From Psammoneis japonica (Eukaryota): a stretch of DNA of 64,000 bases. The DNA lies in contig QPGO01000024.1 in NCBI GenBank assembly GCA_008632985.1, forward strand, positions 449,848 through 513,847, read 5' to 3'. Below, piece by piece: positions 1 through 64,000 of this stretch. Within the stretch, counting starts at the first letter, position 1, and each line of letters opens with the position of its first letter. A model generated the notes under the pieces. The model was not told where the DNA came from. It was given only the letters and a program-made list of their open reading frames with translations, and made no database searches. A program made the translations under genes and the position numbers.

Positions 1-240
1 ACGCTGGCGGCCGCCGAGGAGCAGGTGAAGGCGGGGACCCATGCCGCCGTGAGCAGCGTGGTCATCTCGTGGCCTCAGAAGGCGGGGACAGCCATTGCGT
101 CATGAATGCAGCACGACCGCTGATTTCCCTGCAATTGCACACAATGCTGGGAACAGTGGCTTCATTGGACAAGAAGCACAAGAAAATCAATGACAAGCAG
201 CAAACAGCATGACGATGCAAAGAGCCACACTTGCACTTTG

Positions 241-267
241 GCAGCAGCAGCAGCAGCAGCAGCAGCA
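241..267 (+). repeat. (GCA)9 microsatellite
   Basis: Seen directly. Confidence 0.9.
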
Positions 268-959
268 ACAATGACAATGGCGAAGTGATTTGAGTGTTGT
301 TGTGGTTGTTGTGTGCAAGCAGTGAGCTTTGTTTTGAAACGACAAGTCGGTCTGCGATCATTGGATTTCCAACAAACTTTTTGGACATCACGCATTTAAA
401 GAAACTGAGTCATTTAAAAATGTGCAGCATGTAAAATCTCTCATGACCATGTGCTCAGAAAGACAAACAAACAGACAGACTGCCAATGCGGAAACCGCCA
501 GATGGGCATTTGTGCCGGGTGCTGGCAAAGACAGATGGACGGGCCACCAGGCCTCTTTGCATGTTGTGCCGCACCCAAGTTTAGACAGATGGAGATGACC
601 CACCAGTGGCACAACCACTCTGGACTTGATTCATTTGGAGAAGGGTGCCTCTCAGCCAAGTTGACCTGGTTGACATTTTTGACTGTGACCTGTCAAACTT
701 TGGTGCTCTTGCTTTCTCACTTTTCCAGCTTTTTGTTTGAACGGAACATTGATGGCTGTGGCTGGATCAGCACACTCCAGCTTGGAAAAGCCTGTTCTTT
801 TTTGCTCTTCTCTCTTCCCCATCATGTCAGACTTTTTTCTTCTGGTGTTGACAATGGTGCCTTCATCAATTTGGCTTGTCAGCTTGAATCTGATGTGTGA
901 TTTTGCCGCTGTTGTTGAGTTTCTCTCTCCTCCTCAGGCCCACCCTCCATGGGTGGAGC

Positions 960-1300
960 TTCAGTGGGGTCATGAGAGCTTAAATCCAGAATTTTCAAGC
1001 TTGAGTGTTGGTTTGAGACAGAGAGGAAATCATTTGCTGTCCTGGAGACATTGAAAGAAATTTGGTGTTGTTCCTTGGTCAATGTGTGCACTTGTTGTGT
1101 GTGTGTTGATTGCAAATGCATTTCATCATGTGGGGCATTTGATGCCCAAATGTGCCATGCATTTGCAGTTGATGTGCAATGAGTGCAGCCCCAAGTCACA
1201 GCACATCAAGGGGCATCATCACCCAGTTGCAGATGCCCTCAGCCATCTGGCAATGCAACCCAGCAGCAGTGGAGATGCTGGCTCTGCGCCCTTCACATGA
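960..1300 (+). mobile_element. Degenerate Ty3/Gypsy pol, RNase H region
   Basis: Translations ETERKSFAVLETLKE (cf. TEKELLSIVETLKEF) and HIKGHHHPVADALSHL (cf. YIKG..N.VADALSRL). Confidence 0.8.
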
Positions 1301-1859
1301 AGCACTCACTTTGCAGATGACCACAGTGCTGCCAGCAAGCTTTGTGCAAATGAAAAAAAGAACAAATCAGAGTTTTTGGCACTGCCACTCCATTGCCAGC
1401 TGGGCCATTGCTGGCCAACCCACACTCCCAGCATGCTGCTTCAGTGTGGCAGGAGCTTGCACAGGATCAGCCAGACTGGGTGCCACCAGAAGGTGACACC
1501 CCACCAAAATGACTGAAAAGGATTGACTTGCACAAGGAGTTCATTGTGTGCTCATTGGTGACAGCCACAGAGGGCACACCACCACAACTGCAAAAGGAGA
1601 ATGGCACTCATGCAGGTTTTCAAAAGAAGCAACAAGACACTTTGGAACATGCTGCCAAAACAAGTGCAAACTTGGATTGCAAGGCCGCTCATTCTTGACT
1701 GAGAAGAATTGTGACAATTGCAAGAAGCTTGGCCCTCAAAGCAGTGCAGAGCTGAGACAGCTGGCAAGCAGAGGAAAGACAGTGCAGGACTTGGATGCAT
1801 TGAGCCAGGAGCCTTGAAGGCAAGGCAGGCAGGTCATCAGGAAAAAGCACTCATTTCAT

Positions 1860-2310
1860 GTTGAAACAACACCACATCTTGTGCAGAAATGCCAGTGGCT
1901 CAGCAAATGGACAACAATCAAAGGTGTGGAAGGATGACTCTCATTTGTGCTCACAAGGGCAGCAACAGAGGCAGTGTTTTCCAACCCCAAAGAGTGAAGA
2001 ACTTGATTGAAGAGCAAAGAAAAGAGGTGGCATTGAAGACTGACTGGAGCGGGTGGAAGCAGTCATCCAGAGTTGTGACAAGCAGATCATCAGCAGCTTC
2101 ACACAGAAACACAGCCAGATCTTGTGCAGAAATGCCAACAGGCACAGCAAATGGATGACAATCATCAAAGGACACTGAAGGATGACTCATGCTCATGCCA
2201 GAAAGTGCCACAAGCAACAGAGGCAGTGCATTTACCCCAGAGAGTGAGGGGAAAAGAAGCAGTGTTGAAGACCAGCTGGCATGGACAGAAGCAGTCCAGA
2301 GATGCAATGA
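1860..2310 (+). repeat. Two diverged ~245-bp tandem units inside a ~1.3-kb insert splitting the Gypsy pol
   Basis: Shared blocks atcttgtgcagaaatgcca, cagcaaatgga, gaaggatgactc, agcaacagaggcagtg, ttgaagac at about 1875 and about 2119. Confidence 0.75.
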
Positions 2311-2739
2311 TGTGCAGATTGTCAACAATTTCTGCTGAACTGTGTGGAACTTGTGCTGAAACCTGTGCAGAAAATTTCTGAGATGACAGAAAATTGAAAG
2401 CAACAAATGTTGCTTGCAATGCTGCAATGAGGTTGAGGCTGCCATTGGCAAATGTGAACAAAATGGGCTTGTTGGAGCCAACATCACACTGTCTGAGAAG
2501 GGCAACATCAGCACAAGAAGTTGTGCAGAAAACAATGTAGAGACAGGGGTGTGCAGCTGACATTAAAAAGTGTGATTGCAAAAAGAACAGCTGCCTGTTT
2601 GCTGAAATGCACTGCACTCCAGTGTGCACTTCACCTGTGTGCTTTGTGGGGGAGGCACACAATGACAGCTGGCATGCCACGAGGACAAAATTGTTGCACT
2701 GGAGGTGTTGACAAAACCTCCAGCTGTGCAGTGCCTGAA

Positions 2740-3600
2740 CAGCCGCACTGCCCTGGCAAGACATGTGCAGAAGCAAACACCCCGCTGCCCATCACTTTCA
2801 CTGGCCTGGCATCATGAGGGCTGGAGTGCATTCTGCATGTGTGAAGTGAAAACAATGCCAGGAAATGAAATGCCAAACACAGCCAGCATTGCAAGAAGCT
2901 GCCAGAAAAAGCAGCCAAGACAATCCTTTTGGATGTGACAGGGGTTTCACCAAATTGAGCAATGTGGAAAAAACACTCTGCAAAGGTGAGCAGCAACTGT
3001 GATTGCCTTGCCAGCAGGGTGGTTCAAGTGCCAAGATTTTAGAAGTGTGCACCAAACATGCGGGTGTCACAGAGATGCAGCAAATGTCATGGAGCAAACC
3101 TGGCCATGCAGGCATCCAAATCCACAGGTGAGCACTTCTGTGAAATGCACACACCAGACACTTGGAGATGTGGTGTGCTCATTTTCAGTGCAAGACATGG
3201 AGTTGGACAAGGGCAGCCCATGGAAGGGCATCTTTTCAGCCACAGCTTTTGCCATGCATCCTGCATCACATGCCACTGCATGTGCAAGTCCCAAACAATT
3301 GGTCTTTGATGCAACGCAGCTCTTTTGTTCACCACCCTTTGTGTCAAGTGCCAAGTGGAAGCACACCTGATGCAGAAAGCCAAGCTGATGCACCCAAATG
3401 ACAAATGCAAAAGCACGAAACAAAAGGAGTGCCAACACACCACAGGGCAGTTGGTGCTTGCTGTCAAACAAGGACAAAAGACAAAACACACCAGAACTGG
3501 CTGTCGCACAGGTTCTGCCAGCATTGTCAGCATGAGCAAAACAGCACCACTTTGCATGCACAAGATGGTGTGCTGACACAGATGCACTGCCATGCCACAT
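2740..3600 (+). mobile_element. Degenerate Ty3/Gypsy integrase
   Basis: PGKTCAEA..HFHWPG (zinc-binding region), WPCRHPNP (cf. WLCRYPRP), HQTLGDVV...PWKGIFSATAFAM...SPKQLVF (cf. HQTLGNMLR...PWSGILSA.AFA.R...TPGQLVFG). Confidence 0.8.
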
Positions 3601-3619
3601 CACATTTTTCTTGATGCAA

Positions 3620-4110
3620 CAATTCAGATGAGCATTGCTGATTGATGCACTGCTGGAATGGCCCATTTTGTGCTCAAACTGCAGGGGTGGTCAGCTGCTC
3701 CAAGTTTGCATGAGAGGCCAATGGACAAACATGATGATGTTGTGGTGGCAGCATCATCAGCACTTTTCCACTGCCATGCGACAGCACAATGTTGTTTTTG
3801 ACACAACAACACAGATGAGCACCAACAGCTGGTGCATTAGAATGGTGACCCATTTTGCTCAAACTGCAGGAGCTTGTCATTTTGTTCAAACTTGTGTGAG
3901 GCCAACACCACTTTCATGATGATGTTGCAAGAATTTTGCTGCAGCCTTGTTGCAGTGTGTTTTTCTTTACAACACAGATGAGCACTGATGGCCAGCACAA
4001 CAGAACAACCAAATTTGCTCAAACTGCAGGAGTCACCAGCTCATTCAAATTGAAATGAGAGGCCAGTGGTGCCAAAATGATGACAACATGGTGGCGGCAT
4101 GTCAGCAATT
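3620..4110. repeat. Three diverged ~165-185-bp tandem units
   Basis: Anchors cagatgagca and gctcaaactgcagg and gaggcca recur in units starting near 3626, 3811 and 3975. Confidence 0.75.
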
Positions 4111-7100
4111 TCCCACAGTGCATTTGTCAATTTAGTGTCTTGCAAGTGGCAGTGATCAATTGGCGATCAATTGGCCATTGTTGCAGCGGCAAAAACAAAA
4201 ACCTCTTCCGTTTGCCATTTGCACTTCCTGTGCATGAAAAAGTGGCCAATTTGTCTTTGTGGTTGATTTTCCGTGCAACTGGCCAGAGCAGCAGCTGGCT
4301 GGAGAGCAGCTCCACTCCAGCCAGCCAGCTGGTCATCTGCACAAGCAACAAGCAGCGTGATGTCATGTGCAACATTCCTGGCCACGGCGATCCTGGCTGT
4401 GAAACATCACATTTGGGCAAAAAATGGCATGCCAGCAATTGATTTGTGGCCCCGGACTGCAACGAACTCATTTCTCATGTGTGTGTGCATGAGCCTTCAA
4501 ATGCTTCTTCGGATCACTTTTCCCTTGTGTCAACCATGTGCCCTCATGCCCTGCGGTGTTCAACGCTTTGCTGTCAATGGCAAAACAATCAGGGGTCATT
4601 GGAAAAACAGTGGTGGCATTTGGGATTGGAGCATCACATGACATCATGTTTTTGCAAAATGTGATCTGCTCTCTGCAGCAGAGAGGAGAGAGAGTCTGAG
4701 TCTGCCGCACACCAACGTGTGTGATTTACAACATTTTGCCACTTGTGGCAGTGTCCATGAAATGGAGGACTGATCAATGCCACAACAAACATTGTGAGCA
4801 TCAAAGAAAGTTGCATCATTTTTTGAAAACAAAAGGATGCTTCTTGAGTGAGGAGGAGGAGTTGCAACCCTTTTGAAGGGTCATGGTGACTGAAATGAAT
4901 GGGATGGGACCACCTGACCTGATGCCATTGGATCTCAGGTCATGGTTTGTGGGCTCATGGCAGTTTGCACTGTAGAGATAGAAATGGCAAAGCAGACAAC
5001 TCAGGAGGTGTGAATTGACCAGTTGCCAAATTGTGAGAACAAAAACCACTCCACTCAACAACCAACAACAACTTGTGGGAAACAACAAGTGAACCGCACT
5101 CACACCAAACTCAACACAGATGCACTTGGTGCAAAGGCCTGTCAAGAACGAGAAGTTCTTGATTGCATGAAAGAAGAACAGAAGTGAGGCTCATTCTCAA
5201 TTTGAACCCCAGACCTCCGATCTCATTCGTTTCTTGATCTGTGATTGGGTGAGTCGTTGATGGTGGTTGATGGTGGTTTCTGAGCGGTCATCATCACACG
5301 CAGCACATGTCACGTTGGAAAGGGGCCTTTGCAAGCAAGGGCAGGTTGTCAAATGGTGTGCTTGGCGCATTTGCACATGACGATGTTGCTGACACAGCCG
5401 GTCATCCCCTGAGTGAGCAGCGCTGTGCACGCTGTGGTTTGTGGCACACAGCACATGAACACTTGCTGACAATGCAAGGTCATTTTTCCCTTGTGTGCGC
5501 AACAAATCTCCCTTGTGTTGCACGCTGCAACATCAACTTGGCTGATGTGGAAGGTCATCCTTTGAGTGATTGCACCTTGTGTGTGGCACAAATTTGATGC
5601 CATGCACAGCACATGACATGAAGGGAAAGCAACTTTTAGAGTCATCACACATTGCCCCTTTGTCACTTTAATCTAGCTGGTCAAACACAGCTTTAAATTG
5701 CCATGATGCAGCACGCAGAGAGAGGACAGATCTTGGCACAAATTTCACCAGTCTAACACAAGCAACAAGGAGAGTGAACTCAGAAAATGCAAAGGCATTC
5801 TGAGCAGAAAGAAGCATCATTGTCAGCTGTTGCATGTTTGCCATCTCTCTTTGGTCTTTTTTTCTTTGCAGTGTGTGGCAGCTGCCCCCCTCTTCCTCTC
5901 TCAGAACAAGCTTGTCTCATCCACTTCCTTCCTGTCACTGTGTGCCACACAAACTGGTCAAAGCATTTTGCTTTTTAACTTTTCCACAAAGTGTCCTGAG
6001 TTGGTGCTGATGCAAGAGGAGGCCAAGCTCTTGCAGCTTGGAGCTGACCAGCAGCGTGTGCCTTCTGTGCTGCATGCTTGATGTCTCTTGCAAGCAGCGG
6101 CGGCTGTGCGAAACAATGTGTGCATGAGCTGCCACCTGCCCAAGGCTGCAAAAAATGGTTTGCTTCTCTCTGCATGGCTTTTTGACTTTTCTCATGCCCT
6201 CCTCACAAAAGCAAGCCTTTGTTTGCTCTTCCTGCTTCTGCTGCTGCCCAGAACCTTGCGCCAGTGCATGCTGGGGGTCATTTCTGTCTACCTCAGATGC
6301 TGTGTGCCTGTGAACACTTCCACTTTTTTCATTTTTTGTTGCTGTTGTTGCTCTGGCTCCTTGCTGCTCCAACATGCAGCACTGCTTTCTGCTGCTGACA
6401 CTGCTCCTTTTTGATGGTCTTGGCAGAGCACCTCTCTGCGAAGGAGCATCATGTTGGGAGCTCTGCACCAAAGCTGAAAGACAATTTTCCAGCTCTAAAG
6501 AGAGCTCATGCCAGAGGACATGCTTTTTTGTTCTTGTTTGACACAAGCAGCACGCGGCAGCACCAGCACAAAGCAAAGACATTTTCAGGGCAAGCTCCGA
6601 TGATGCTTTTTGGGCAAGCTTGGAGATTTTGCAACAAGCGCCAATGCAAAGTGCTGAATGCACTCTTTGTGGGGTGATGCTTGGTTGTTGACAACATGCA
6701 GGGATTTTTTGCTGGCCACCAGCTGGGGTCAACAACGAGCTCTTGCTCTGCTGGGTTGTGCTGCAGAGCATCTCAACTGCTTGCTTTTGGTGCCAAAAAA
6801 GTCTCGCCACTCTCCATTTGGCACCTTGTTGGTCCCTTCCACCTGCTTGTTCAAGCTGCAGCACACAGGCACAGCTGTCTGTGAGAGCTGGCACCAGCAC
6901 CCTGGCCCTCCTCCTGTGGCTTCTTTTTCATCCTCATCATTGGTGCCTCTTGCAGCCATCAGCACTGTGTGGATGGACACACTGCTTCTACACCAAATTC
7001 TTGTGCCTGTGCATCACACTTTGCTTCATAAATTTTTCCTTTTCCTTGAGTGCTGCAGCTGCCTTTGGTGACGGTGCTTGTGAAAAATCATCATTTGTTC

Positions 7101-7295
7101 ACCCCAGGTGAAAGTCCGGGTTACTTTTGCCTGCTGACTCTCGCTTCGCTCGAGTTGAGTTAAAAAATCAAAACCCTCTGCCCACACCAGGTAAAAAAAA
7201 AGCCTTTGCAAATCCACTGCCGAGGGAGGATTAGGAATGGCGCTACGAGAGCCAATCAGAATTCAGCATTTGGGATTTCTACTTAGGGGAGACCC

Positions 7296-7318
7296 TCGGA
7301 AAGTCGAGGACTTTCCGA
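7296..7318. other. Perfect 10-bp inverted repeat upstream of the transposase
   Basis: tcggaaagtc-gag-gactttccga; a CCAAT element (gagccaatcag) lies at about 7250. Confidence 0.7.
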
Positions 7319-7482
7319 CTAATTAATTGGCACTTTTTTGGAAAATCTGACGCAATCACTTAGGGACGAGGAGGTTGAGACAACTCTCCAAAAGCAGACA
7401 CAAGAATCAGAATGATGCGGAGACCGACTGTCATCTTCCTTTCGCGCCACGGAAAATCACAACAACACAGACTTCTCACGCG

Positions 7483-10400
7483 ATGAGAAAAATTCTCTCA
7501 CAAAAAAAACCCACGAGAGAGAAAAGTACAATCTCTACTGGTGCTTCGATGATGACGGACGTAACGGAAGAATCTGCTCCAACAAAAGAGGCCGAAGAGC
7601 GGCAGCTGCATCCTTTCTTTAGAAACATGGGCATTCAATCCCAGAAACGCAAAGGCTCCATCAAAACGAGCAAAAGCCAAGCGCACACACGCCAGAAGCG
7701 GACGCATCAGAGCGATTTTAGTGGGCGTAAGGTAGCAAGAGTAGACGACGGAACGAAGAAATGCAAGAGATGTGAGAGAGGTCCTACACATCATCATGGC
7801 CATGATCCCACATGTAAATTTTCAAAAAGGCACTCGCAAGTGAACGTCACCAAAGCTACCATGGATGCAGAGCGACGCGATAAAGAGCTGCACGAAACGA
7901 ACAACACGATTCCGGCTGCCCCAGTTGAGGGAGTTTCGACCATACGAGACCATTTTGGAACACAGAGACCTGAAGCTCGCATCATGTTGCCTCCTCCAGG
8001 TGTTTCCAATGTTTGCAAGCCGGTGAATTCGGGGGTGGCTGGTGCTGCAGGCCCCGTGGAGTACACGGATAATACTTGCAAGGCGGCCGCTATTACAAAA
8101 TTTTTGGTTGAGACTTTGAAACAAGAGATTCGAGCAAGAGTAAAAAAATACGAGAACTCCGAGGAGAGGACGAAGTGCCCGGCTGCAGTAAGTGCTCTCA
8201 TCAGCTATCTGTTGGACTCTATCAAGCCCAGATTCGAGCAAGGCAGCAACAAGTATCCTGTGGCTACAGCAAAAAGTATTAAGCTCAACGAGATGCTGGA
8301 GCTTAAGGATGAAACTTTTCCTCCTGGTACAATGTCATTTGAAGTTCCCAAGGATGACTGCACATTGCCACCTGATTGTTACTACCATCAGCTGCAAGGT
8401 ATGATAATACACATTGTTTGTTGGGAGCTGAATTATCCTAACATCTACATCCCCTGCATTGACGGAGAGTGCGACGGTGAAATGATTCATGACCGTATGG
8501 ACTTTACTCGATACGGTGGGGCGACACCAATATATTGCATCAGCGGGAAGACGCACATGGCGGTGTCAATGTGGTACGAATGCAATCAATGCAAAATTCG
8601 ATGCAAGGGCAACGACGGTCGACTACTGCACAAGCTGCCAAAAAGCCTACAGTCAGCATATCCAACGTTGCCTAAGTATGCTAGTGCAACCAACAAGTGG
8701 CATCTTACCAAGGAAACTACAAGACTCCTTGAGTCCATTATTGTCACGTACGCAGGCGGGGACAAGTTCTCGCACATGCTGCACCAAATGCGAGCCGACT
8801 ATTTCAAGGACCTCCAGAAAGAATACTATGACCGAGCCATAGACAAAACCGAAGACTGGGTGTCTTTTGAGGATTGGATGGGCGGGTACAGTCCATCAGG
8901 CTCTGCACTTCTCGATCTTTATGACGAAAGCGGCAAATCAAAATTGACAGCTCTGGCCACGTCCTCGTATGACAGGTGCACGAGATTAATACAGATGGTT
9001 GGAGCCGCCGTGAGTGTCGCATCCGATCACACTTTTCAGATTCTCAAAAACTACTCAAAGAAAGCAGGTGGAGCAGCTGGCCTGTTCACCATGTGCAATG
9101 AAAAGGGGCAGGTAGGAACCGCTTGCCTAACCCCAACATTGGAAGCAAAAGATTTTGCTCACGCGGCAGAACAGTTTGCCAGGCGAAAAAACGTACGACC
9201 GAAAATCCACTACAGCGACACCTGGCCGCATAAGTCGCAGCTATGGAAGACAATTTTCGGAATGAACCTAATCTGTCTGCTCGGGCTCTTTCATTGGATG
9301 CATCGAATTGTAAGAACGCTCCGAAAAGAGCATGCTGATTATTGGCAAGCTGTAAGTGATCTTAAGGCGACCGTATCGTATGCCGAGTGGTCCGACCGCC
9401 AAGCTGTGATACAAGCCCTGAAGGATGGCACTCTAAACAACAAAAAGCATTCTGACGAGGAGATACAAGATGTCATCCACTCTTCAAGGTGGAAGCACTA
9501 CCAGGAATACATTCGTCTCTGGAGGCACCCGCTGGAGAAAAGGCTCACTTTGCTTGAGGATTGGTTTGCTCGATACAAGTGCACTGCCTCCGACGGAGCC
9601 CCCGCTGCCGGAGGACGGCTAGATCCAGACAGTGGACTAACACTGTTTACAACCGACACAAAGGATGCAATTTTGAATGCGAAAGAAACCTCTAAGGGAT
9701 TGGACACTCCAGTGCCGAAGTCGGAGCAGTGCTGGCCAGTAGCGCCGTCCCTGCGGTCGAAAGCAAAACCAGTAAAGTGGCGAACGCTGCTAGGACCAGA
9801 ATCCAAATTGGAGAAGGCACACGATTCACTGGCACATTATGGAAATTGCGGAATGAGACATTCATTGATGGACTTGCTTACGTTGGAAGGATTAGTTTTG
9901 TACAATGAAACAATCGAAGAGAAGGAGCGAATCGAGAAAATGGATGCAACGGCGCGAGCCAAGATTCCATACGACTTTCGGGGCGTGGTTACTCATCGGA
10001 ATGTACTTGATCTAATTGAAATCAATAACCTTGCAATAAAAAAGGGGAAGAAAGCGCCATATCCGAATGTAAGGGAACTCGAGGAGGACACCGGCGAGCG
10101 TTTCTTGTCCCAGTGCCTGCTGGAGCAGAATGCAAGAAATGAAACGATTGCTCCACACCCCGAGACAGATCGATGCATGTGCAATCTCTGTGGGACGAAA
10201 CCGGTGCAAAATCCATACAAGCGAACAACAAGATCAGAAGTTGGAAACCGTGACGATGGGGAAACTGCAGCGGCGCCAACCGTTGAACCTACAAGCGGCA
10301 TTGTCGAAATTGCGATGGCTCCCGAGGTGACGGTTGAACCCATGTGCATGGATGCCACTCCATTGCTTAATGCAGCTCACGTTCAAGTCGAGGAGCAGTT

Positions 10401-10680
10401 CAACATGTTGCAAGCCATGAGAAGCACCCTCTCGCAACAGCTTGCTTTTGCATCGAGCATGAGTGCAGCCCTCCCATCTGTTCCATGTCAAGTGCAACCG
10501 GCTCTTTCAACTCTTAATGATCCAATACGAGATCAAAGGAAGCGAGACATTGATCCGTACTGTTGTCCTGCTTTCCTACAATACAAGCTGCAGCAAAGCT
10601 ACAGCGTGACGGGGTGCCGACCAAGAGGTCGACCAGCGCATTCTAAGGATTGCCCAAAGAGACAGCAGTCAAGAAGGTAG
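7483..10680 (+). mobile_element. Intact Dada-like DDE transposase ORF (1065 aa from ATG 7483)
   Basis: Uninterrupted ORF with normal composition. Cys-rich N-terminal region (PC...YECNQC), then SDHTF, MCNEKGQV..LT, P.IHYSD, LGLFHWMHR, H.DY...SDL and GPESKLEKAH, in the order typical of Dada-type transposases (DHTFK / NE.GQV / YxD / DxxH / GT..LE..H). Confidence 0.7.
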
Positions 10681-12877
10681 ATGTTATCATTGCTAGGCAC
10701 ATTTTATGCATGAGTTTTTGATTCACTATTTTATTTCAACGCTGCCGATTCCTACACTCCAACAGTATCAACAACCTTTGTTTTTAGCCGGGTTCGCAAG
10801 AGTTGCAGTAGTCGCAACAACAGCAGTAGTCACAAGAGTTGCAGCAGTGGTCGTAAGAGCTGAAGCAGCCGTCGTTCTTGCGTGCCCTATGGAACACGCT
10901 GTTAATGACTGAAGTCAGAAACAATGCCACAGAGATGAGCTCTAGGACAAAAGTAACGTTTGCAATGCAACAGAACCACGACCAGCTGCTCCAACACCGT
11001 AGACTCCCATGCTCCTGCACAACTGATCCAGTGCCACCTGCTCCCTGTGCCACCCAGCTGCAAAACTTTAACAATCCAAACCACCTTTGAGGGCAGGTGA
11101 ACCCTATCGCAACGGAGATTCGGGTCTGCGGCGATTGAAGGCACTCCCGTCCTTGGAAGTACCAGTCAACGCCTTACCGGGGAGCAACCCCTTGGCTCTC
11201 GTCAGCCGTCTCAATGTTCAGAGGTGGGGCCACATGAATATTATTGCAGAAAAAAATTACCGAGGCGCTGCTGCAGTCAGCAACCTCGGCAGTGGCCCGT
11301 GTTATTTAAAGACGAGGGCAACCTCGTCTGCCGCTTATACGCGGACTTTTCCAGCCAAAGTGGTAGATTGTAGATAAAAAAACGACACAAACCGCACCCA
11401 CAATCAATGTATGGCCATCAGTCTCTTCAAGTAGCGTGTCAATGGCACCTGAGGCAGCGCCGCAAGCAGCGATACTGCAAAAATCCTGAAACGCCACCCC
11501 GATGACTAGCAAACCCTCATTGACGACTGGAGAAGAGTCGACTGGAACCACAACGATTGCAGTGCGAAACATCAGCGTACGAGACGCCATTAATGCTCAA
11601 TACTTAAAGGAGGGCTCTTCAATCTGTCAAGAACGAACAGAAATTGCAACGCAAGAGTGAGAGACGAGTTCTAAAAATGGCAAAAGTACCAACGCATTTC
11701 TTATCCATTTTTCACGTTTTTCATACCTCTCTTTTCGTATATTCGTTTGTCAGAGAGAGCTTTAATGCGTGCTTTGTTGTCACGGCAGTATCACAAGTGA
11801 CGGCGACAATTTCAACTACCGGCTCTTGCAGCTGTCATGGTCGATTTTTTGTTTGGTGTCGGAGGGAAACTCCTGAATTGCGTAGATTTCTACGTAAAAT
11901 TCATACTAGAGATACTTCAACACTACAATGTCTCATCGGTGTCACCACGCCAAATTACTTCAACATGCGAGCACCCGGAGATCTGACACATCGGGTGGTG
12001 AAAAGGGAGAAAGAAGTGAGGATCGCTCTTCAAACCACTTCCGCAATTTAGATCAAGCTCGCTGCCCTCGCAACCCCTTCCTCTCTCCTTCCTTTCTCTC
12101 CTCTTCCTCCTTCTTTCTCCTCTCCCCTCCCCCCCTCTCGTGGAGTCACTAACCCCCCCAAAATCGGCACTGGATGGACGACTCATGGTGGCGTCGCCCA
12201 ACAATAACAGCAACAACAATTCTTGTCGTTGGGAGCCGTGGCGGAGGATGAAGACGGTGTGCTAGACGATATTCAAGCGGCATGTTGCGATGCCGACTAA
12301 CGACCTAATCGCGGATATACGTTTTGTGCATCTTGTGATTCATTTGCGTTTGATGATCCTCCCGGAATGGAAAGACTTGCTTAAACGTCGTGGTGTTCTT
12401 GTGGAAGATGATACAGTGACGGCGCCTCCTGAATACATTATCGTCCTCCAGAAGAAGTCGTAGAGCACCGCATTCAAGTAAATGAAGTGGACGGAGAGGA
12501 GTAGGAAGACGAAACTCACGAAAAAGCTAGACAACGAGAAGAAGAGATTCTTCATTAACGAAGACATGTTGCGTGCTGTTGTTTTGGAAGTGTAGGGGGA
12601 CTTGCCATCTGCCGGTGAGTATGATTGACTTGTGTGGTTCTGTTCTTTTTCTCTCAGCTGCACTGTGTTTCGTTTTATACCGTAGAGTAGTTATCAAGGC
12701 TCCCGAGAATTTTTTGTTTGTTTGCAAATTGAATCCAGTGACGGACGATGAGGACTCGGAACTGATCTTTTCACGCTTTGATCCTGAGGTCAAGGCTGAA
12801 ATTATTCGAGACACGAAACCGGCGCGTCTCTATTGCATCATGAAAACACAACATACGCATGATGCAACAATAAACAG

Positions 12878-49155: not shown

Positions 49156-49338
49156 CTCGGCGACAAGGTGAGTGCTGTTGCATGGGAAAATGGGAACGCT
49201 ACCGACATAACCGACGCACCGCACCTCGAATCCGCTTCCCCCCGTGCGTCGTGTCGATGATTTTTGAAAATTCAATATATTCTACGTGCCTGAAGCTTTT
49301 CCGGTAAACCCATCTCTAATGAAAACCTTCATAGACTG

Positions 49339-49450
49339 ATGTTATATAACTTTTCCCGCCAAAACCAGTTACAGCAGCAACGTCAGGAGTTCAGTCCCCC
49401 TAAAATAATAAAGGAGGCCATCGAGAGCAAATTGTCCAGGACAATGGTCA

Positions 49451-49488
<38 letters not shown>

Positions 49489-50581: not shown

Positions 50582-50958
50582 CAAACATATTGAAGGTCAC
50601 GCGGAGAGTTCTAATCCATAATACCATAATATCTGTTTTAAAGAGCCGCGCAATTCCGTCGATTGAGATGCGTCAATGATTTCTCCATTATCAAAATTGA
50701 GACTAGGATGTCAACAATCACGGACAAGCTCAGCTCTTTCTATAAGGTCGCTATCCCTCGGACGGTTTCCCTCACCAGCAGCGCTATGGATTCTAGTTTG
50801 GACAGTGTGTGACAGAAGTGAGGAAGAGTCGCAACTAGAGAGTCAGAGGTCTTCAAGCTTTCCGATGAGCTGGTGAGTATCCGGATCTCGTTGCCACGTT
50901 AGGGGTGGCGGGAGCAATATCACCTCCCACGGGTCCCTCGAGACGTCAAAAACTAAGT

Positions 50959-52557
50959 TCATTTTTGTTCAGAAAATGGATATCTTGCAAAAACTTCATG
51001 CCCTTGCGGCTCGTCTGAACTCCCAACCAGTATACGTTCAACAGCCGCCCATGCACTCATAGCCCCTTGATCCGTACAGAGCCGCGCTGGAGGAACAAAA
51101 ATCTTCCAAGGTTCTGGTCTGTTGAAACAGAGAGCCTCCAACCGAGTCCGCAGCTCAGTATTGGCGGCTACTCCACCTACAACAGCAAGTTCCCTAATGC
51201 CGCAGTTTTCATCTTCCAATGCTGTCATGGCTCGATTCAATCGTTGTTCAATGTGTCAATAGCCACGTCTTGAAATGACGCTGCAATGTTTGCCTTGTCC
51301 TGATGGGATAAGTCCGAAACCGAGTCAACGTCACGTTCTTTTCGAAGCTTCTCTGCGGCAAGCATGACCGCAGTTTTGAGCCCAGCATACGAAAAATCGC
51401 AATCTTTACGTTTCTGCAGAGGAACTGGTAATGCCACCGCTTTTGGATCCCCGTCTTTCGCCAACCGTTCTACTGCAGGTCCACCACCGCCACCTACAGG
51501 CAAGCCCAAGAGTCTCGCTGTCTTATCAAAAGCTTCTCCTGTTTCGAATGAAAAGAAAGACTAGCAAATGAGCGAAATGATTTGTAGATACACATCAAGG
51601 ACCGGAGAGCGAACCCACGTAGTACGTACCCAACGAATCATCAAGCGTGCCCCCCATTATTGTGTATCGTCCAACCCCCATACACTGGAGGATTTGACAA
51701 TGTCCCCCAGAAACCAACAGGGCAAGAAACGGAAATTCTATGGCTCTCTCCAACTCATGAGTGGTTGACGTGGCTGGGGTCTGAATCATCATGTCCGTGG
51801 AATCGCCACTGGCAGCCGCTGGCATTCTCGCCATTAGAATATGTGCCTCCAAATGATGCACTCCAACAAAGGGTAGGTGATGCTTTATAGCCAAGTCGCG
51901 TGCCCTGTTGCATCCGACTCGTAGACATATTTCAAGACCAGGCCCTACCGTGACACCAATAGCATCCACCTGCGGTAGCGTAAGGTTTGCATTCTGCAGG
52001 GCCTCCGCAATGACTCGGTCAATCTGATCTTCGTGAGCGTCCCTCGCCAAGCCAGGGACGACACCGCCCCATTCCTCATGAATCTCATTCTGAGACGCTA
52101 GCGATTCACCTAATATGATACCGTCACTTGTAACAATCGCAGCCCCGGTGTCATCACAGCTACTCTCAATCCCCAGCACTGTGAAAGGTTTGGTACAATC
52201 TGGCAAACCAGACTTAGCTTCAAAAGAAAAGCCATCTGAGCCGCCCGGTTGATAAATATTTTTGAATTGACCTCGATCAACAGCCTTGGCCATTCCAATG
52301 AATTCGCGTCGCTTTTCCCGACTTGACTTTCCTCCACTTTTCCTTTGATGCATATTACTGGTCGAATTCACAGATGATACGTCGCTAATGTCCGCCGTCG
52401 AAGAGAGCAGGACCCGACTCGAGCCGACGAAGGCCGCTGGGGATCTTACTCGTGACGACACACACCAAGCTTTTCCGAGATGGCTGGCAGCCAAGAGCAT
52501 CGTGCTAACAGTCATGGCAATAAAACGGTGACTGATCACACGTGACTTGAGCGGCAT
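50959..52557 (-). CDS. tsaD: Organellar tRNA N6-threonylcarbamoyltransferase (TsaD/Qri7 family); intron 51629-51539; apparent 1-bp deletion near 51257
   Basis: LGIESSCDDTGAA, GGVVP..A...H, GPGL, VHHLEAH, LLVSGGH, TLDDSLGEAFDK, FSYAGLKT, GGVAAN, CTDQGAM. Confidence 0.92.
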
Positions 52558-59189: not shown

Positions 59190-62100
59190 ATGGCATGCAT
59201 CTGCCGTTCTCTTGTTCGAGTGCTCACACACACCCGAAGGTCACAGCACGCAACAAATGCCAGTGCACATGCCCGAGACAGAGGAGAGTGGGACAGATCC
59301 ATTGATCAAAAAAGGTCTGATCTAGATTGCCAGCAGCATGTCAAGCAAGAGAAGTGCGCGCAATTGCATGCACACATGTGTGTGCCAACAGTGCAGACAG
59401 TGGGGGAGGTGCTCTCTGCGTGTGTTGCGCCGCTCCTGTGCATTTTGTGCTCGCCAACGGCTGCGCCACATGCACCGCACCATGGCAGATTGCAACCCTG
59501 AGCACCTGACAGCACAGCTGGCCATGGTTGACCACAGCAAGCAATGCATGAAAAGGAGCTGCAAAAGCACCAGATGATTTTGTGATTTTCAGAGTCAAGC
59601 CCCAGCGCCCAAAAGCTTGCTTTCTTTGCCACTGGACCTCTCCTTGAGGCACACAGCACATTGTCAACATCATCCACAGTGCCAGCTCAACATGAAACCA
59701 GAAGATGTCAAGCACACATTTGTGTGCTCAGCTCATGAAGGCTCTGTTGAAAAGCTGCAGACCCAGTGCACTCTGCACCAGATTTGGGAGAGGTGCTTGT
59801 GTGGCTGCTCAACTCTCTCCAGTGCGCTCTCTTTGTCTCACATGCCAAACACAGCATTGAGTTTGTCAAGGAAATGTTGCAAAAGAAAAGTGCTGCAGTG
59901 AAAACAAAAGGTCAACACACACCATCCTGGAAGGTGTTTTTTGGAAAGCTGGGTGTGTGTCACTCTGTGCTGGGCCCAAAAGAGCTTGAGAGAGACAGAG
60001 CTGCAAACAATGCTGCAAATGTTGTTGCAGGTCTGCCTGCAATTGGCTGACAGCACTTTGCAGTGCATGAAAGGGGAGCCCAAGTGATGCCATTTCAATG
60101 TTGCACTGCACTCAGGTTGGCCCAGACTTGCAACAATTTTCTCCACCTTTCAAGTGCTTTTGCAGAGCCAGCAAACACTTCAATGAGGGTCATCACAAAA
60201 CATGAAACAGCTGCAAGGGCCTCCAACTGCTCTCCCCAGCTTGATTGTGCAACTTGTTTGTTGTTGAAGCTGTGATGTTGGTGTGTGTGTTTCTGGACTC
60301 ACTGGAGAGAAAACATGACAGCTGCTGGCAAGGAAGCTGAGCCAGAGCCAAAGGTTGCTGCACTGCAAGAAGAGCTGCTTCATCTGCCTTGTTCAAAGTG
60401 GGAGATGATGAACAACTTCAAAAGCACCAGAGAGAGGAGTTTGGCATCAAGAGCATCCTCCAAAAAGAGCTGCCCACAAAAGAGAAAGTCTTGGAGCTGG
60501 CTTTTCATGTGTTTGAAAAACAGAGCTGAGATGAAAACAATGCTGTGGTGTGACAATGAGTCTGTCTCAAAGTGCCCCAAGAATTTGCTGCATGGCAGTG
60601 GTCTCTTGTGGATTGCAAGAAAGAAACTCAGTCAGGTGAACAGAGAGGCACCAAAGCAGCATTGAGTTGCCTTCTCAGAGACCAGCTTTTCTTTCTCATC
60701 AATCACAGAAGTTGCGCAAGCAGTCAAAGAAGCATTGACAGCAAACAAGCTGAGGCAAGCAACTGCTCACATGACTCAACTCTGTCTGGCAGGGATGTGT
60801 TCTCAACACGCAGGCTGTGCCGCCAATGTGCAGAGTTGCTGCCCAAAGAGCAAGGTGCACAGCACCCTTCCTCTCTCATTTTTCAAGCAAGCTCCTGCCC
60901 CTTGATCCTGACAAGCACGGCAGTGCACAACCAAATTGTGCACTCTCTTCTCCTTTGCACCAACCAGTGTGCAGTGCATCCGAGATGCAAGACTTGACAA
61001 GGAGACCACAAAATTGTCAGGCACACTGCAATGGTGCAGCATCTGCATGACCCTGGCAGATGAACACTTTGGTAGCTGCCTCATTCCCAGTGGGGTGCAA
61101 ATGGCCAAACAACAAAGAGAAAAATGGAACTTGCCATCCCATGTTGCGCCGTTCAGTGTTTTTGTGGTTGCACAATGATTCGTTGGGTTGCTTGTGTTCA
61201 ATGCTTGTCATGTGCAGTTGCGGCAGGTGTGTGTCTGTCAATGTTTTCTGTGCAATCTTCTTTCTTCTTGCATGGGCACGGGCACACACACGGGTGCCAG
61301 AAAAAACACTGCCATGCTTCCCACCCTTGGCAATGCATTCACTCCACCCAACTTGCTGCAAACATCAACAGCCTTCACACCACCTGCGCCCGAGTCACTT
61401 CCTCCCTTCCTGTCACATCTCTCACCCCTGAACACATGGAACTCATCAAACAACTCCACCCACTGCACAAACACCTGCCCCTTCCTTCAACTCCATCCAC
61501 CCGACATCACCGCCCTGCCTCCACCCCTTTACACTTCACCACGGATGACCTTCAGAAAGCACCAGCCAAATGCCAGCCTGGCAAAGCACCAGGGGTGCCT
61601 CTGCCAACTCCACCGACCTGTTAAAAGCCTGCACCCTTCACCATTGCTCTGTGCCAACATTTTTCTCTCACCCTTGTCTGCTTGCTTTTAAGCAACTCCT
61701 CAACCTCATCCTTGCCGCAGACATCCCCACATCTGTCAAGCCTGCTTTCTCATCCAACCACTTCCTCACCCTGCACAAAGACAAATCCATCCTCTCTAAA
61801 CTCTGCCCAATCGGCATCGGCACTGCCTTGTGACGGATCGTCTGCACCCTCATCATGTTCCTTCTTGCCACCACCTTTGCTGCCAACCTCCTCCTCTCTG
61901 GCCAATTTGGAGTTGGTGTCAAAGGCGGCCTCATCGAACATTTCTTCTAACCTGAATCTACACCAACAAAGGCTCTCCCACTCCTCGACCTCTCCAACTG
62001 TTTCAATGAATGCTCTCACAACACTTGCCATGACACCCTTGTCAACTCAGAGGAATGCCATTCCATTGCACCTTTCTTCAACCCACTTCATCACAACCCC

Positions 62101-64000
62101 ATCACCTGTTGGCATCAAGACCATCACCTGCAATGGTCTTCCTTTTCTCAACCCAAAGGATTTGCCCAAGGCTGTCCCCTGAGCCCCGCCTTTTCCTGCC
62201 TTGTCCTCTCCCACACATTCAAGCCCATCAATGACGAGCTGCACCATCAGCTTCCTCCCCACTCCAAATCTGCCACCTCATCATGTGTTGACAACACCCA
62301 CACACTCCCCCCCCCCCCCCCCCCTTTTTTCAACTCCCTTGGTTCCTCAAGCGCCTTTCTCCTCTTGGCCCTCAATTTGGAATCAAACTCAATGCATCCA
62401 AAACCAAAATCCTTGTGTCTGCGTCCGGCACCTCTCCCATCAACTGCCTCCCACCTGCCAATGCTCAGGCCCTCTCCAAAGCCCTCTCCTTTCTCAATCC
62501 CACCAATGACCCACAGGGCAAACCTGAACTCACATCCAGCATCCGCTTCCTCGGCCAACCCATCGGCTCCTTCACCTTCGCCATCAACTTCCTCCACAAC
62601 AAAGCCATTTCCTTTGCCACAGACCTCCTGTGCCTCACCGACCGCCTCACCGACAAACAAACACAAAGCACCCTGTTCCGCACATGCTCCATCCCCTCTG
62701 TCACCCACCTCCTTGCAGCTGATGCATGCTGCAATCTCAAGCGCTCCAATGACTTTTCAAACCCCCCCCCCNCCCCCCCCCCCCTCTCCAATGGGCATCT
62801 CCTTTTGTTGACAAGGTCATCGGCCACTCCCTGCATTTCCTTGCTCATCTCATTGAACACACTGCTCCTTGCCCTCTGCAGCCAAACTCATTGCCAACCT
62901 CCCTGTTTCATTGGGTGGCGTCGGATGCTGAGACATCTCTGCTGTTGCCATCCCTGCCCTCATCACCTCCCTTGCAAGATCAATGTGCCACACCAAACAC
63001 ACGGCATCCCACTCACCGGTGGTGATGTTTTTCATCTTCCTTTGAGCTGCTCTGCTGCTCTCAGCTCATGGTCTAACCCATGCTCCACCCTTGTTCCTTT
63101 TGTTGCATTTTCCACCACTGTGCTCCCATCCTCCTCCGATTTGACTCTTCCTCCTTCACCTTCCTGACACATGCTGTTGAACACCACAACCCACAAGGCC
63201 CACCGCAACGCCTTCACCTGTGTCGCCACCAAACCAACACTCTCCCTCAGATCCTTGCTGATCCTTCCATGCAACCTGCCCTTCTGTCCCTTCCATCTCC
63301 ACCAACAAGCTTGTGTCTTCACTCCTTCTCCCAAACTCCCGCCACCAACCGTCTCCCATCACATGTTTTCATGCTTCTTCTTCTCCGCAAACTGTGCCTT
63401 CCAACAATTTCTTCCACCTTTCTCCAACATGACTGCCCATGTGGCCACGCCCACCCAGACCCTCATAGAGACCATGCTTTTGAATGCTCCAAAATGCACA
63501 AAAGCCCACTGTCAAACCATGTCCGCGACACTGGGTGTCTGCACTGTCATCAAAACACTGGGCCCCCTTTGTGGCCTGTGTCTCTCCCGCCAACAAGTTC
63601 ATCTCAACCCAGCTGGTCTTTGGCTGATCACCCCCTCAAACGCCCCGCCAATGTTGGCATTCAACTCACCCCTGGCTCCACCACACCTGATGCTCCATCT
63701 GCCCACCACTTCGTGGCCATTGATGTCAATGTGGTGCCACCAGCACCCCGGCCTCCTGCATCTGGTTTGCCTGTCTCTGAAAACCCATTGAGCAAGGCTC
63801 ACCTCAGCAGCGCACAGGACAAGCTGCTTGGTTGCTCTGCACCATCTGCCCCAACTTCGATGTCATCGACGCCATCAACCAAGCCAGACTTTTCCTTCTC
63901 TCTTTTGCAGCATTCGACCATCTTGGTGGAATCAGGCGTCATTTTCACATTTTCTTCTTCGGCACCTCCACCTCAACATCCGCCTCCATCCCACCCCTTC
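59190..64000. other. TpA/CpG-eroded repeat domain F
   Basis: Abrupt loss of TpA after about 59190, continuing to the window end. Confidence 0.9.
61450..64000 (+). mobile_element. Degenerate non-LTR retrotransposon reverse transcriptase, CRE/SLACS-like
   Basis: PGKAPG, LHKD...KLCPIGIGTAL*R, GQFGVGVKGG, LLDLSNCFN, GFAQGCPLSP, CVDN (in place of YxDD), RFLGQPIGS. Confidence 0.85.

Follow-up and report, generated by a model that had tools for sequence, protein, structure and literature searches.

Near-complete loss of TpA in bounded blocks of a diatom-like nuclear genome suggests domain-restricted mutation of TpA to TpG and CpA

More than half of the 64-kb window (the whole stretch of DNA that we analyzed) has lost nearly all of its TpA dinucleotides, and the loss is confined to six blocks. 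We think it likely that these blocks are silenced and mostly unrecognizable relics of mobile or foreign DNA, eroded by a domain-restricted mutation process that is directed at TpA and acts at the DNA level. A two-state Poisson segmentation of the window in 100-base bins placed the blocks at 1 to 7100, 16001 to 17800, 18601 to 23600, 25701 to 27300, 32701 to 47700, and 59201 to 64000, a sum of 35,300 bases (35.3 of the 64 kb, 55%). An earlier note on this DNA had likewise claimed that over half of the window is affected; its own six blocks cover 36,345 bases (57%), nearly the same territory. Each of these holds between 5 and 67 TpA, where base composition predicts 80 to 1078 (observed/expected ratio, O/E, 0.036 to 0.148), and the note's counts of 0 TpA in 1201 to 1800 and 17 in 8401 to 8700 were reproduced exactly. 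The segmented blocks contain 139 TpA, whereas 1432 would be expected at the O/E of the remaining 28,700 bases. Their TpA O/E is 0.04 to 0.13, versus 0.56 to 0.80 in the DNA between them, where the host genes lie and where TpA is itself moderately under-represented. The block edges are sharp within about 100 to 200 bases.

Four blocks are poor in both TpA and CpG. The largest, the 15-kb block at 32701 to 47700, retains 54 TpA (O/E 0.05), with CpG at 0.14, TG at 1.87, and CA at 1.82. The block at 1 to 7100 is truncated by the left end of the window and ends sharply near 7100; it holds 25 TpA (O/E 0.05), with CpG at 0.19, TG at 1.89, and CA at 1.88, and the minimum in 200 mononucleotide shuffles was 426 TpA. 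The block at 18601 to 23600 is mostly single-copy and has 30 TpA (O/E 0.09; CpG 0.28). The block at 59201 to 64000, which carries a retroelement relic and is truncated by the right end of the window, has 10 TpA (O/E 0.04; CpG 0.28). The other two blocks are poor in TpA and near normal in CpG: 16001 to 17800 has 15 TpA (O/E 0.13; CpG 0.88), and the high-copy block at 25701 to 27300 has 5 TpA (O/E 0.06; CpG 0.74). TG and CA are both raised in the blocks (O/E 1.46 to 1.97), and G+C is 0.475 to 0.536. AA, AC, and AG are not depleted, and the O/E of AA/TT reaches 1.27. Long open reading frames (ORFs) without any tyrosine codon are found in the blocks.

The missing TpA can be accounted for by gained TG and CA. 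We counted gains and losses per 10 kb with strands pooled and expected TG/CA to rise by half of the number of TA (and CG) lost. In the four blocks poor in both dinucleotides, 374 TA and 423 CG were lost, which predicts a gain of 398; the observed gain was 402. In the two CpG-normal blocks, 353 TA were lost, and the gain was 194 where 176 was predicted.

Tandem repeats in the largest block provided an internal clock. The 183-base array at 36232 to 36919 (3.8 copies, 75% match by TRF) has 9 to 11 aligned CA/TG double differences per unit pair. Such pairs point to an ancestral TA or CG, because only TA and CG are one transition away from both. The same ancestral site became CA in one tandem copy and TG in another, at a single locus and in place. 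Tandem copies differ by aligned CA/TG pairs at 40 places in 972 bp inside blocks and at 2 in 961 bp outside. Unit pairs of the 183-base array are separated by 30-33 transitions and 3-5 transversions, whereas the ratio is about 1:1 in arrays outside the blocks. The mass balance, the tandem signature, the TA-keeping copies, and the tyrosine losses of a reverse-transcriptase relic (both described below) support the view, also taken in the earlier note, that the TpA loss is mutational and postdates the arrival of the sequences in place. They further support T:A to C:G transitions at TpA as the likely changes, on both strands and within bounded domains. The direction of change was deduced from majority states, tandem copies, and protein consensus, that is, from standing sequence and not from new mutations.

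The near-loss of CpG in four blocks (O/E 0.14 to 0.28) had no place in the earlier account. In these blocks, the loss of CpG with gain of TpG/CpA is the pattern of decay by deamination of 5-methylcytosine. This decay accounts for about half of their TG/CA gain and for none of the TpA loss. In the two CpG-normal blocks, TpA decay is about 14 times the CpG decay on a log-decay scale. Because TpA was lost in these two blocks while CpG was largely kept, the TpA process is separate from CpG decay, and the two losses are separable processes.

TG and CA are not clustered by strand in any of the six blocks, where z ranges from -0.76 to +1.29; the two strands were changed independently, site by site. 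The flanks of the site matter. Comparing blocks with normal DNA, residual TpA numbered 5 versus 320 in RTAY, 56 versus 631 in mixed contexts, and 78 versus 230 in YTAR (chi-square p = 3e-23), and the TG gain in blocks is greatest before C and least before A. TA followed by a pyrimidine is preferred. A one-strand TAY model fits imperfectly, in that TTAC/GTAA is retained above its prediction (24 versus 128). The change from TAY to TGY on one strand is the change from RTA to RCA on the other, so either A or T could be the attacked base.

To compare the window with other genomic copies, we used a public sequencing run, here X1, with a single-copy depth of about 63 and no library type on record. 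X1 is possibly the source of the assembly itself and so does not independently confirm its letters. The block at 16001 to 17800 is a mutated copy of a high-copy repeat (X1 depth 389 to 5221). Where the window reads TG or CA, TA or CG stands in most of the other copies, as at 16073, 16077, 16286, and 16339. The block at 25701 to 27300 is also high-copy (depth 640 to 2094); at 26138 to 26139, where the window has TG, 7 of 7 other X1 contigs differ at each position. The 40 differences from X1 with the best support include 12 with TG/CA in the window and TA elsewhere and 11 with TG/CA in the window and CG elsewhere, with one each reversed; a further 1237 differences lie outside this tally.

The earlier note had called the blocks repeat domains. 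This holds for the two small blocks and for the first 1.3 kb of the block at 32701 to 47700, which are high-copy in X1. It does not hold for 20671 to 23338, which has a depth of 63 and is single-copy at 80% likeness or more, a call that is blind to older copies diverged below 80%. Since one block is single-copy at this likeness, the process is not simply repeat-induced. Between two blocks lies a segment (about 17826 to 18600) that is AT-rich and high-copy and has normal TpA.

Few of the blocks' contents could be recognized. None of the 189 stop-to-stop ORFs of at least 90 amino acids (aa) overlapping the blocks, including those in 1 to 7100, reached its Pfam cut-off, and the Gypsy, Plavaka-like, and CRE labels and captured gene fragments of the earlier note were not reproduced. 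One weak match to RVT_1 was later confirmed as a reverse-transcriptase relic, which makes the block at 59201 to 64000 the only one with a recognizable mobile-element gene. The relic is a degenerate, tyrosine-free ORF at 61951 to 62808 on the forward strand. A homologue search found 112 homologues at E of 1e-3 or below (27 at 1e-10 or below), and RVT_1 is present in 10 of 10 tested. The relic has His, His, and Cys at the three consensus-tyrosine columns and CVDN in place of the YxDD box. Its seven consensus-arginine columns are all changed as well (three to His, two to Gln, one to Lys, and one to Asn); the changes to His and Gln are counted toward CpG decay. The homologues retain tyrosine in 68% and arginine in 78% of the corresponding cells. 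In the rest of the block sequence, we saw no recognizable genes, terminal repeats, or viral genes. For the other blocks, a mobile or foreign origin is suggested by the absence of host genes and, to some extent, by copy number.

We propose that the blocks are relics of mobile or foreign DNA that would have been silenced in a diatom-like nuclear genome. A domain-restricted, DNA-level process may convert their 5'-TpA-3' to TpG or CpA by T:A to C:G transitions, targeting the strands of each site independently, favoring TAY, and nearing saturation with about 9 in 10 TpA gone. Four blocks would in addition have undergone ordinary CpG decay to TpG/CpA, the kind that cytosine methylation is expected to cause. 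In the two high-copy blocks, where CpG is largely intact, the TpA process would have been separate from CpG decay and faster. The outcome would be irreversible inactivation, with tyrosine codons gone, catalytic motifs destroyed, and homology erased. We infer that a dedicated enzyme acts and that chromatin state may direct it; candidates are a TadA/ADAT-like deaminase acting on adenine in DNA and an enzyme that modifies thymine.

The earlier note had left open whether such a process had been reported. It is known from one report, in the chlorarachniophyte Bigelowiella natans, and the window would be a second, diatom-like case. According to the main text of that preprint, integrated viral DNA undergoes TpA to TpG/CpA hypermutation; of the 231 mutations that mutation-accumulation lines acquired in two viral inserts, 230 were A-to-G or T-to-C changes, every one of them at TpA, and hypermutation was switched on in some lines only (Mettrop et al., bioRxiv 10.64898/2026.01.13.699255). 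The preprint goes no further than naming an ADAT2-like candidate. The two cases may be the same kind of process. In B. natans as in the window, TpA changes to TpG/CpA on either strand in bounded domains with normal DNA between them, and a single-copy target is affected; a T:A to C:G change confined to TpA, seen there, is what the standing sequence of the window implies. The footprint of low TpA with high CpA plus TpG is also alike, there in clusters where reverse-transcriptase and DDE domains are overrepresented, and a role against invading DNA is proposed there as here. However, B. natans is a rhizarian, whereas the host of the window is a diatom-like stramenopile, of a different supergroup lineage. 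The evidence in B. natans is measured new mutations, whereas ours is deduced from sequence. The loss nears saturation over 55% of the 64-kb window, compared with a TpA Rho of 0.45 in a B. natans viral insert. CpG decay in most blocks and the TAY preference are further features of the window; the words "CpG," "trinucleotide," and "flanking" are absent from the main text of the preprint, whose supplementary mutation table may hold flanks.

The blocks might instead be a by-product of error-prone repair, with a low-fidelity polymerase that patches silenced or methylated chromatin and miscopies the template T in TA steps. Polymerase eta, which makes WA-motif errors in antibody hypermutation, offers a model. 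Heavy CpG decay in four of the six blocks suggests frequent lesions and mismatches calling for repair, and undirected repair would change both strands without strand runs, as we observed. However, the CpG-normal blocks combine a TpA O/E of 0.06 to 0.13 with a CpG O/E of 0.74 to 0.88, so TpA loss does not track CpG decay. WA-type errors should also erode ApA, but AA/TT is raised, and the B. natans hypermutations are confined to TpA and to some lines. We regard this explanation as unlikely. A-to-I editing of transposon transcripts or double-stranded RNA by an ADAR- or ADAT-like enzyme, fixed through reverse transcription and reinsertion, would suit the reverse-transcriptase relic, and RNA adenosine deaminases prefer U before the edited A. 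It is nevertheless very improbable. Editing of one transcript leaves A-to-G changes on a single strand, whereas TG and CA occur in similar numbers and in random order, and the tandem copies diverged in place at one locus. Some 9 in 10 TpA were lost with other A contexts undepleted, and the sharp block edges and the affected single-copy stretch also argue against it.

Native composition or selection, in which foreign or specialized DNA was always poor in TpA or was purged of it, draws some support from the fact that DNA in general is moderately short of TpA, as the O/E of 0.56 to 0.80 in the window's normal DNA illustrates. However, an O/E of 0.04 to 0.13 leaves long ORFs without tyrosine, the active-site tyrosine of the reverse transcriptase is replaced, and other copies of the same repeats kept TA. 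Selection against TA in decayed DNA also does not predict CA in one tandem copy and TG in another. This origin, too, is very improbable. That the blocks arose in sequencing or assembly, for instance from a modified base at TpA that was misread, is hardly credible, even with a supporting run of the provenance given above. A de Bruijn contig of 5942 bases from X1 matches 19669 to 25611, a stretch that takes in most of one block, apart from 5 gaps and 10 differing letters; its depth is 63.1, the same as neighboring unique sequence. A misread at TA, a palindrome, would have one strand call TG and the other CA, and the contigs would not be clean. Moreover, the signature and its flank preference recur in separate metagenome assemblies (see below), and the mass balance and protein-level changes are evolutionary patterns.

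The preferred reading, TpA-directed mutation of DNA, can be set beside known systems. The earlier note had framed the process as "reverse-RIP." Its transitions from TpA to TpG/CpA stand, but the RIP frame is only an analogy, because the host is diatom-like and not a fungus. Fungal RIP likewise inactivates mobile DNA irreversibly by mutation, within the limits of its target and by transitions at one dinucleotide. However, RIP converts CpA/TpG to TpA with an AT-rich product, the opposite of the window, and it needs duplication. We rejected fungal RIP on the low TpA O/E with raised CA and TG and a G+C of 0.475 to 0.536, and a RIP-type action on duplications only on the single-copy depth of 20671 to 23338 (at 80% likeness or more). 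Diatom transposons are CpG-methylated. Deamination of 5-methylcytosine gives the same products, TpG and CpA, and explains the low CpG of four blocks, but it cannot remove TpA. ADAR/APOBEC editing of animal retroelements, in which deaminases drive the changes, resembles the window in its hypermutation of mobile elements and its nearest-neighbor preference. It acts on RNA or single-stranded cDNA and leaves strand-specific clusters of a single transition, whereas the window has balanced TG and CA without runs in chromosomal DNA, and this type of editing was also rejected. The tRNA adenosine deaminases TadA and ADAT, like the adenine base editors made from them, deaminate A after U or T, and the natural substrate loop of bacterial TadA reads U-A-C-G. 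This site choice resembles the preference for TAY, especially TAC, in the window. Their natural action on double-stranded chromosomal DNA is only putative, and the 64-kb window contains no deaminase gene.

We tentatively suggest that TpA-directed hypermutation is a widespread and possibly ancient genome defense of stramenopiles and rhizarians. It would be run by a natural DNA editor that changes T:A to C:G at 5'-TAY-3', guided to silenced DNA independently of cytosine-methylation decay and faster than it, and would have silently wiped out the homology of much of the mobile DNA of diatoms. If so, the repeat content and "orphan" sequence of diatoms have been systematically misjudged.

An intact transposase-like ORF of 1109 aa (7351 to 10677, forward strand) adjoins the first block and lies outside the mutated domains. 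It has 35 tyrosine codons, and the surrounding DNA (7101 to 16000) has a TpA O/E of 0.56. It reached the cut-off of no Pfam family. Its atlas clusters point to a DUF6729/MULE-like protein rather than to Plavaka: DUF6729 is present in 18 of the 30 nearest clusters, with weaker Mutator/MULE rows. Relatives of this ORF are encoded by 181 stretches in metagenome contigs, and 78 metagenome loci encoding such relatives contain 12 low-TpA blocks. Among thirteen 90%-identical intact proteins of the family, there was no excess of Tyr to His/Cys. In near-identical metagenome pairs, several of which share a locus, TA faces TG/CA in 147 of 399 differences. This is 48% of transitions versus 24% expected by opportunity, an excess of only about 2-fold. 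In the pair L018/L024, TA faces TG (11) or CA (10) at 21 sites, and the reverse occurs at none. With other copies as outgroups, TA is favored as ancestral at 12 of the 16 sites that were informative and TG/CA is commoner at 4; 5 sites had no outgroup. The TpA process thus appears to be under way in these environmental relatives. In 118 of 140 metagenome events, T or C comes directly after the changed A, compared with a background of 53% (p = 2e-12).

The window contains six blocks nearly devoid of TpA. A 500-base profile and a two-state Poisson segmentation placed them at 1-7100, 16001-17800, 18601-23600, 25701-27300, 32701-47700, and 59201-64000, or 35,300 of the 64,000 bases. An earlier note, made from the sequence alone, had put the blocks at more than half of the window, with 0 TpA at 1201-1800 and 17 at 8401-8700; the proportion is borne out and both counts match exactly, so its compositional observation is confirmed. 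The six blocks hold 139 TpA, versus 1432 expected at the observed/expected ratio (O/E) of the remaining window. TpA O/E is 0.04 to 0.13 per block and 0.56 to 0.80 outside, and block 1-7100 has 25 TpA, the minimum in 200 shuffles being 426. TG and CA are both elevated in the blocks (O/E, 1.46 to 1.97), the ApA steps are untouched (AA/TT O/E, 1.27), and the block edges are sharp, within 100 to 200 bases. CpG is nearly lost from four blocks (O/E, 0.14 to 0.28) and is near normal in the other two, 16001-17800 (0.88) and 25701-27300 (0.74), referred to below as the CpG-normal blocks. The earlier note does not record this loss of CpG.

None of the 189 stop-to-stop ORFs of at least 90 aa overlapping the blocks matched a Pfam family at cut-off. 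There were five sub-threshold matches (RVT_1, Zn_ribbon_RanBP, DZR, GREB1_C, and DUF5536), and the RVT_1 match was later confirmed. It marks a reverse-transcriptase relic at 61951-62808 (plus strand), in the last block, with 112 homologues at an E value of ≤1e-3; RVT_1 was present in all 10 homologues tested. Self-comparison of the window revealed local tandem arrays only and no dispersed repeats, and the window has no LTR or TIR pairs of at least 40 bases. The labels Gypsy, Plavaka-like, CRE, and "captured gene" that the earlier note attached to the blocks were not reproduced, the RVT_1 relic being the only element recognized in them. We also compared coded runs X1 to X3 of one public sample, which contains the sequence, with window 14001-34000 at 80% likeness. 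Depth in run X1 was about 10 to 80 times the single-copy level at 15335-16668, 17336-18669, 25340-28007, and 32677-34000, and 20671-23338 was single copy at a likeness of at least 80%. It follows from the X1 depth and the RVT_1 relic that the two small CpG-normal blocks are copies of abundant repeats, that one large block carries a retroelement relic, and that at least one block is unique at a likeness of at least 80%. The 326-aa ORF at 32844-33821, where a block is high copy, had no homologue at an E value of ≤0.01 among 713 candidates scored. The AT-rich stretch at 17826-18600 (G+C, about 0.38 to 0.42) lies between two low-TpA blocks and has normal TpA. It is high copy in X1, with 16 to 23 contigs at 18033-18085, and may be a young insertion or a repeat part escaping the mutator. 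The retroelement relic contains two long poly-C tracts (62283-62323 and 62749-62789), spaced by about 466 bases. The sole N of the window (62772) falls in the second tract, where homopolymer length is probably uncertain in the assembly.

We found that mass balance, tandem arrays, other copies, and the reverse-transcriptase relic agree in upholding the proposal of the earlier note that the bias was imposed after the sequences were in place. For the mass balance, the normal DNA of the window was taken as the starting composition, strands were pooled, and one TG/CA count was predicted to be gained per lost palindromic site. In the four blocks poor in both TA and CG, the loss of 374 TA and 423 CG per 10 kb predicts a gain of 398 TG/CA, and 402 was observed. 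In the two CpG-normal blocks, the loss of 353 TA per 10 kb predicts a gain of 176, and 194 was observed. In the 183-base tandem array at 36232-36919, each pair of units differs by 30 to 33 transitions and 3 to 5 transversions, with CA facing TG at 9 to 11 of the aligned dinucleotides. Summed over six unit pairs from four in-block arrays, 972 aligned bases contain 40 such CA/TG pairs. For three arrays outside, in DNA of normal composition, the sum is 2 in 961 bases, and transitions there are about as numerous as transversions. The array at 27148-27369, which straddles a block edge and was kept out of both sums, has 10 transitions, 1 transversion, and 2 CA/TG pairs. Because only TA or CG is one transition from both CA and TG, the same ancestral site was resolved independently in each tandem copy after duplication. 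The control at 12854-13972, a pair of tandem units each about 570 bases long, shows 82% identity, normal composition, and similar numbers of transitions and transversions.

Other copies in X1 point the same way. We examined the 40 differences from X1 contigs with the best support (1237 further differences lie outside this tally): the window has TG/CA where other copies have TA in 12 and where they have CG in 11; the reverse occurs once in each case. At the 12 former sites, TA has a depth share of 0.38 to 1.0 (at least 0.55 at 11 of the 12), in up to 19 contigs. In the relic, all three consensus Tyr columns are altered, to His, His, and Cys, and the YxDD box reads CVDN. All seven consensus Arg columns are altered as well (His, 3; Gln, 2; Lys, 1; Asn, 1). 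In 20 homologues of the relic, tested leave-one-out, such cells still hold Tyr in 68% of cases and Arg in 78%. Together, these comparisons support a mutational origin of the bias, in sequences already in place.

TG and CA are balanced inside the blocks, and their order along the blocks has no strand runs (z, -0.76 to +1.29). Sites were therefore altered singly on either strand, not in strand-specific bursts as on an RNA or cDNA intermediate. Retention varies with the flanking bases: the TpA counts left in the blocks and present in normal DNA are 5/320 for RTAY, 56/631 for mixed flanks, and 78/230 for YTAR (chi-square, p = 3e-23). Per 10 kb, and for the two block classes in turn, the gain in TG peaks before C at +162 and +114 and is lowest before A at +57 and -12. 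These results fit a preference for TAY (TA before a pyrimidine) on one strand, and TTAC is retained more than the one-strand TAY model predicts. In the CpG-normal blocks, retention is 0.17 for TpA and 0.88 for CpG, which on a log scale makes TpA decay about 14 times CpG decay. Therefore, the TpA process is separable from CpG decay and is faster.

A native TpA-poor composition would account for the blocks without any mutation, but it is contradicted by the CA/TG pairs between tandem copies and by the altered Tyr columns of the relic. RNA editing as the source of the loss is contradicted by the lack of strand runs and by tandem copies that diverged in place. A modified base misread at TpA could make the pattern an artifact; at a palindromic TA, however, misreading would yield TG and CA calls that clash by strand, and the contigs are clean, which contradicts this explanation too. 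X1 contains 0.93 of the sampled words from window 43001-52000. One of its contigs (5942 bases) matches 19669-25611 except for 10 letters and 5 gaps, and its depth of 63.1 equals that of the adjoining unique sequence. This contig rules out an assembly slip, as a check that is not an independent measurement, X1 possibly being the source of the assembly itself.

The main rival is that error-prone repair of silenced DNA causes TpA loss as a by-product. Against it, the CpG-normal blocks lost TpA with CpG kept, and the ApA steps were spared. Most likely, a dedicated, chromatin-guided enzyme would convert TpA in the blocks. It could be an adenine deaminase or a thymine modifier with a product that pairs with G. 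The sequence accommodates attack on either base, because TAY to TGY equals RTA to RCA on the other strand. The substrate of TadA is bacterial tRNA-Arg, with the loop U-A-C-G, which the TAC preference in the window may resemble.

Relatives of a protein encoded in the window suggest that the process is under way elsewhere. The intact 1109-aa ORF (7351-10677, plus strand) lies outside the blocks and has normal TpA and 35 Tyr codons. It has no Pfam family at cut-off and resembles DUF6729/Mutator-like proteins: DUF6729 occurs in 18 of its 30 nearest atlas clusters, and Mutator/MULE rows are weaker. Because microbial-mat metagenome contigs contain 181 stretches encoding relatives, many of them mutually near-identical, it behaves as a family of multi-copy DNA transposons would, one for which descriptions from diatom-like organisms are poor. 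A tblastn search for its degenerate copies in the blocks found none (best E value, 0.049). In the protein cluster of P0001 (90% identity; 11 of 13 members aligned, the two shortest fragments omitted), the Tyr-to-His/Cys class is absent from 134 minority substitutions counted at the protein level only, and the commonest are Val to Ala (10) and Lys to Glu (9).

A metagenome scan with the single 1109-aa protein as the query confirmed nothing. With an alignment of this ORF and five homologues as the query, we obtained 78 microbial-mat loci (457 kb) encoding relatives at 29 to 38% identity. They contain 12 low-TpA blocks of 0.6 to 1.6 kb, two of which each appear twice; TpA O/E is 0.01 to 0.18 in eleven and 0.30 in a weaker one. 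Bases 1201-2400 of locus L023 have 1 TpA in 1200 bases (O/E: TpA, 0.01; TG, 1.42; CA, 1.83; CpG, 0.52), which is the footprint of the window again, in a separate assembly. Near-identical pairs of loci (n = 20; at least 96% identity over at least 800 bases, some pairs sharing a locus) have 399 differences: 147 TA versus TG/CA, 86 CG versus TG/CA, 76 other transitions, and 90 transversions. TA versus TG/CA makes up 48% of the transitions in these pairs, with 24% expected by opportunity. Between L001 and L071, it accounts for 22 of 31 differences, in alternating patches. L018 (1214-2780) and L024 are 97.6% identical over 1567 bases, and TA in L018 stands opposite TG (11) or CA (10) in L024 at 21 sites, with no site in reverse. 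Other copies of the family side with TA against the L024 variant at 12 of the 16 informative sites and with that variant at 4; the remaining five lack an outgroup. This pair captures TpA loss in progress in one of the two copies. With TA taken as ancestral, T (64) or C (54) follows the changed A in 118 of 140 metagenome events, versus a background rate of 53% (p = 2e-12), which is the TAY preference of the window again, in independent data. The low-TpA part of L001 keeps one of six majority-TA sites of a 17-copy alignment and has TG/CA at five, in a comparison of low power in which control copies varied too.

Ordinary host genes alternate with the blocks, including those for PPR, Maf, D-glutamate-cyclase-like, TsaD, UPF0047, and DnaJ proteins. 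The nearest atlas clusters of the PPR protein are all labeled "commonest Bacillariophyta." Among the best 120 matches of the glutamate-cyclase ORF, all organism-named ones are diatoms, at up to 59% identity (Seminavis, Odontella, Fistulifera, Nitzschia, Synedra, Cylindrotheca, Attheya, and others). Given these two affinities, the window comes from a diatom or close relative with no near database neighbor. The same affinity rules out Bigelowiella natans as its source. Of the "reverse-RIP" proposal in the earlier note, the core inference of TpA conversion to TpG/CpA is supported by the mutational evidence. The fungal frame is not supported, the PPR and glutamate-cyclase relatives being diatom and not fungal, and neither are the transposon labels. 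The chemistry in the window is the reverse of that of fungal RIP, and the process does not depend on duplication as RIP does.

In the literature searchable in full text, which excludes subscription-only papers, we found no report of mutational genome defense in diatoms and one report of TpA-directed hypermutation, a preprint on the chlorarachniophyte B. natans (bioRxiv 10.64898/2026.01.13.699255). According to its main text, mutation-accumulation lines gained 231 mutations in two regions, one of integrated giant virus and one of virophage. Of these, 230 were A-to-G or T-to-C changes, every one at TpA, at about 1000 times background and in some lines only. Mettrop et al. (bioRxiv 10.64898/2026.01.13.699255) put forward an ADAT2-like DNA adenine deaminase. 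The process in the window is of this kind, previously described once, in 2026; the window represents a second, distant lineage, in which the process is near saturation. The words "CpG," "trinucleotide," "flanking," "stramenopile," and "other species" are absent from the main text, to which the window adds that the TpA process is separable from CpG decay and that it prefers TAY; the supplementary mutation table of the preprint may contain flanks.

Diatoms are major primary producers. If this reading is correct, hypermutation known from one preprint and one alga would extend to a second lineage far removed from the first. The footprint would be big enough for genome-wide mapping by sequence alone, and the TAY preference and the separation from CpG decay would be handles for finding the enzyme. 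A natural T:A-to-C:G editor of chromosomal DNA would be relevant to mutation biology and base editing. Homology-based annotation would be blind to more than half of the window, where 1 of the 189 ORFs gave a real, weak Pfam match. For such genomes, repeat and gene annotation, the detection of foreign DNA by composition, and models of local mutation rate would have to allow for TpA loss.

Run X2, listed as "DNA?", is probably an RNA run, because its contigs skip introns. They jump 24916^25014 and 28197^28307, in agreement with split DnaJ ORFs. The DnaJ-domain gene at 24682-25360 (minus strand) has a 97-base intron (24917-25013; GT..AG on the minus strand), which an X2 contig skips exactly. X2 cover is absent at 20671-23338, 16669-17335, 26674-27340, and 32677-34000, an absence that does not show silence. 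A repetitive gene at 29000-31700 (plus strand) has no Pfam match; its product is possibly, as a guess, a Ser/Pro-rich surface or frustule-associated protein. Its internal repeats are about 200 to 260 bases long, and a 3.8-kb X2 contig lies over the gene.
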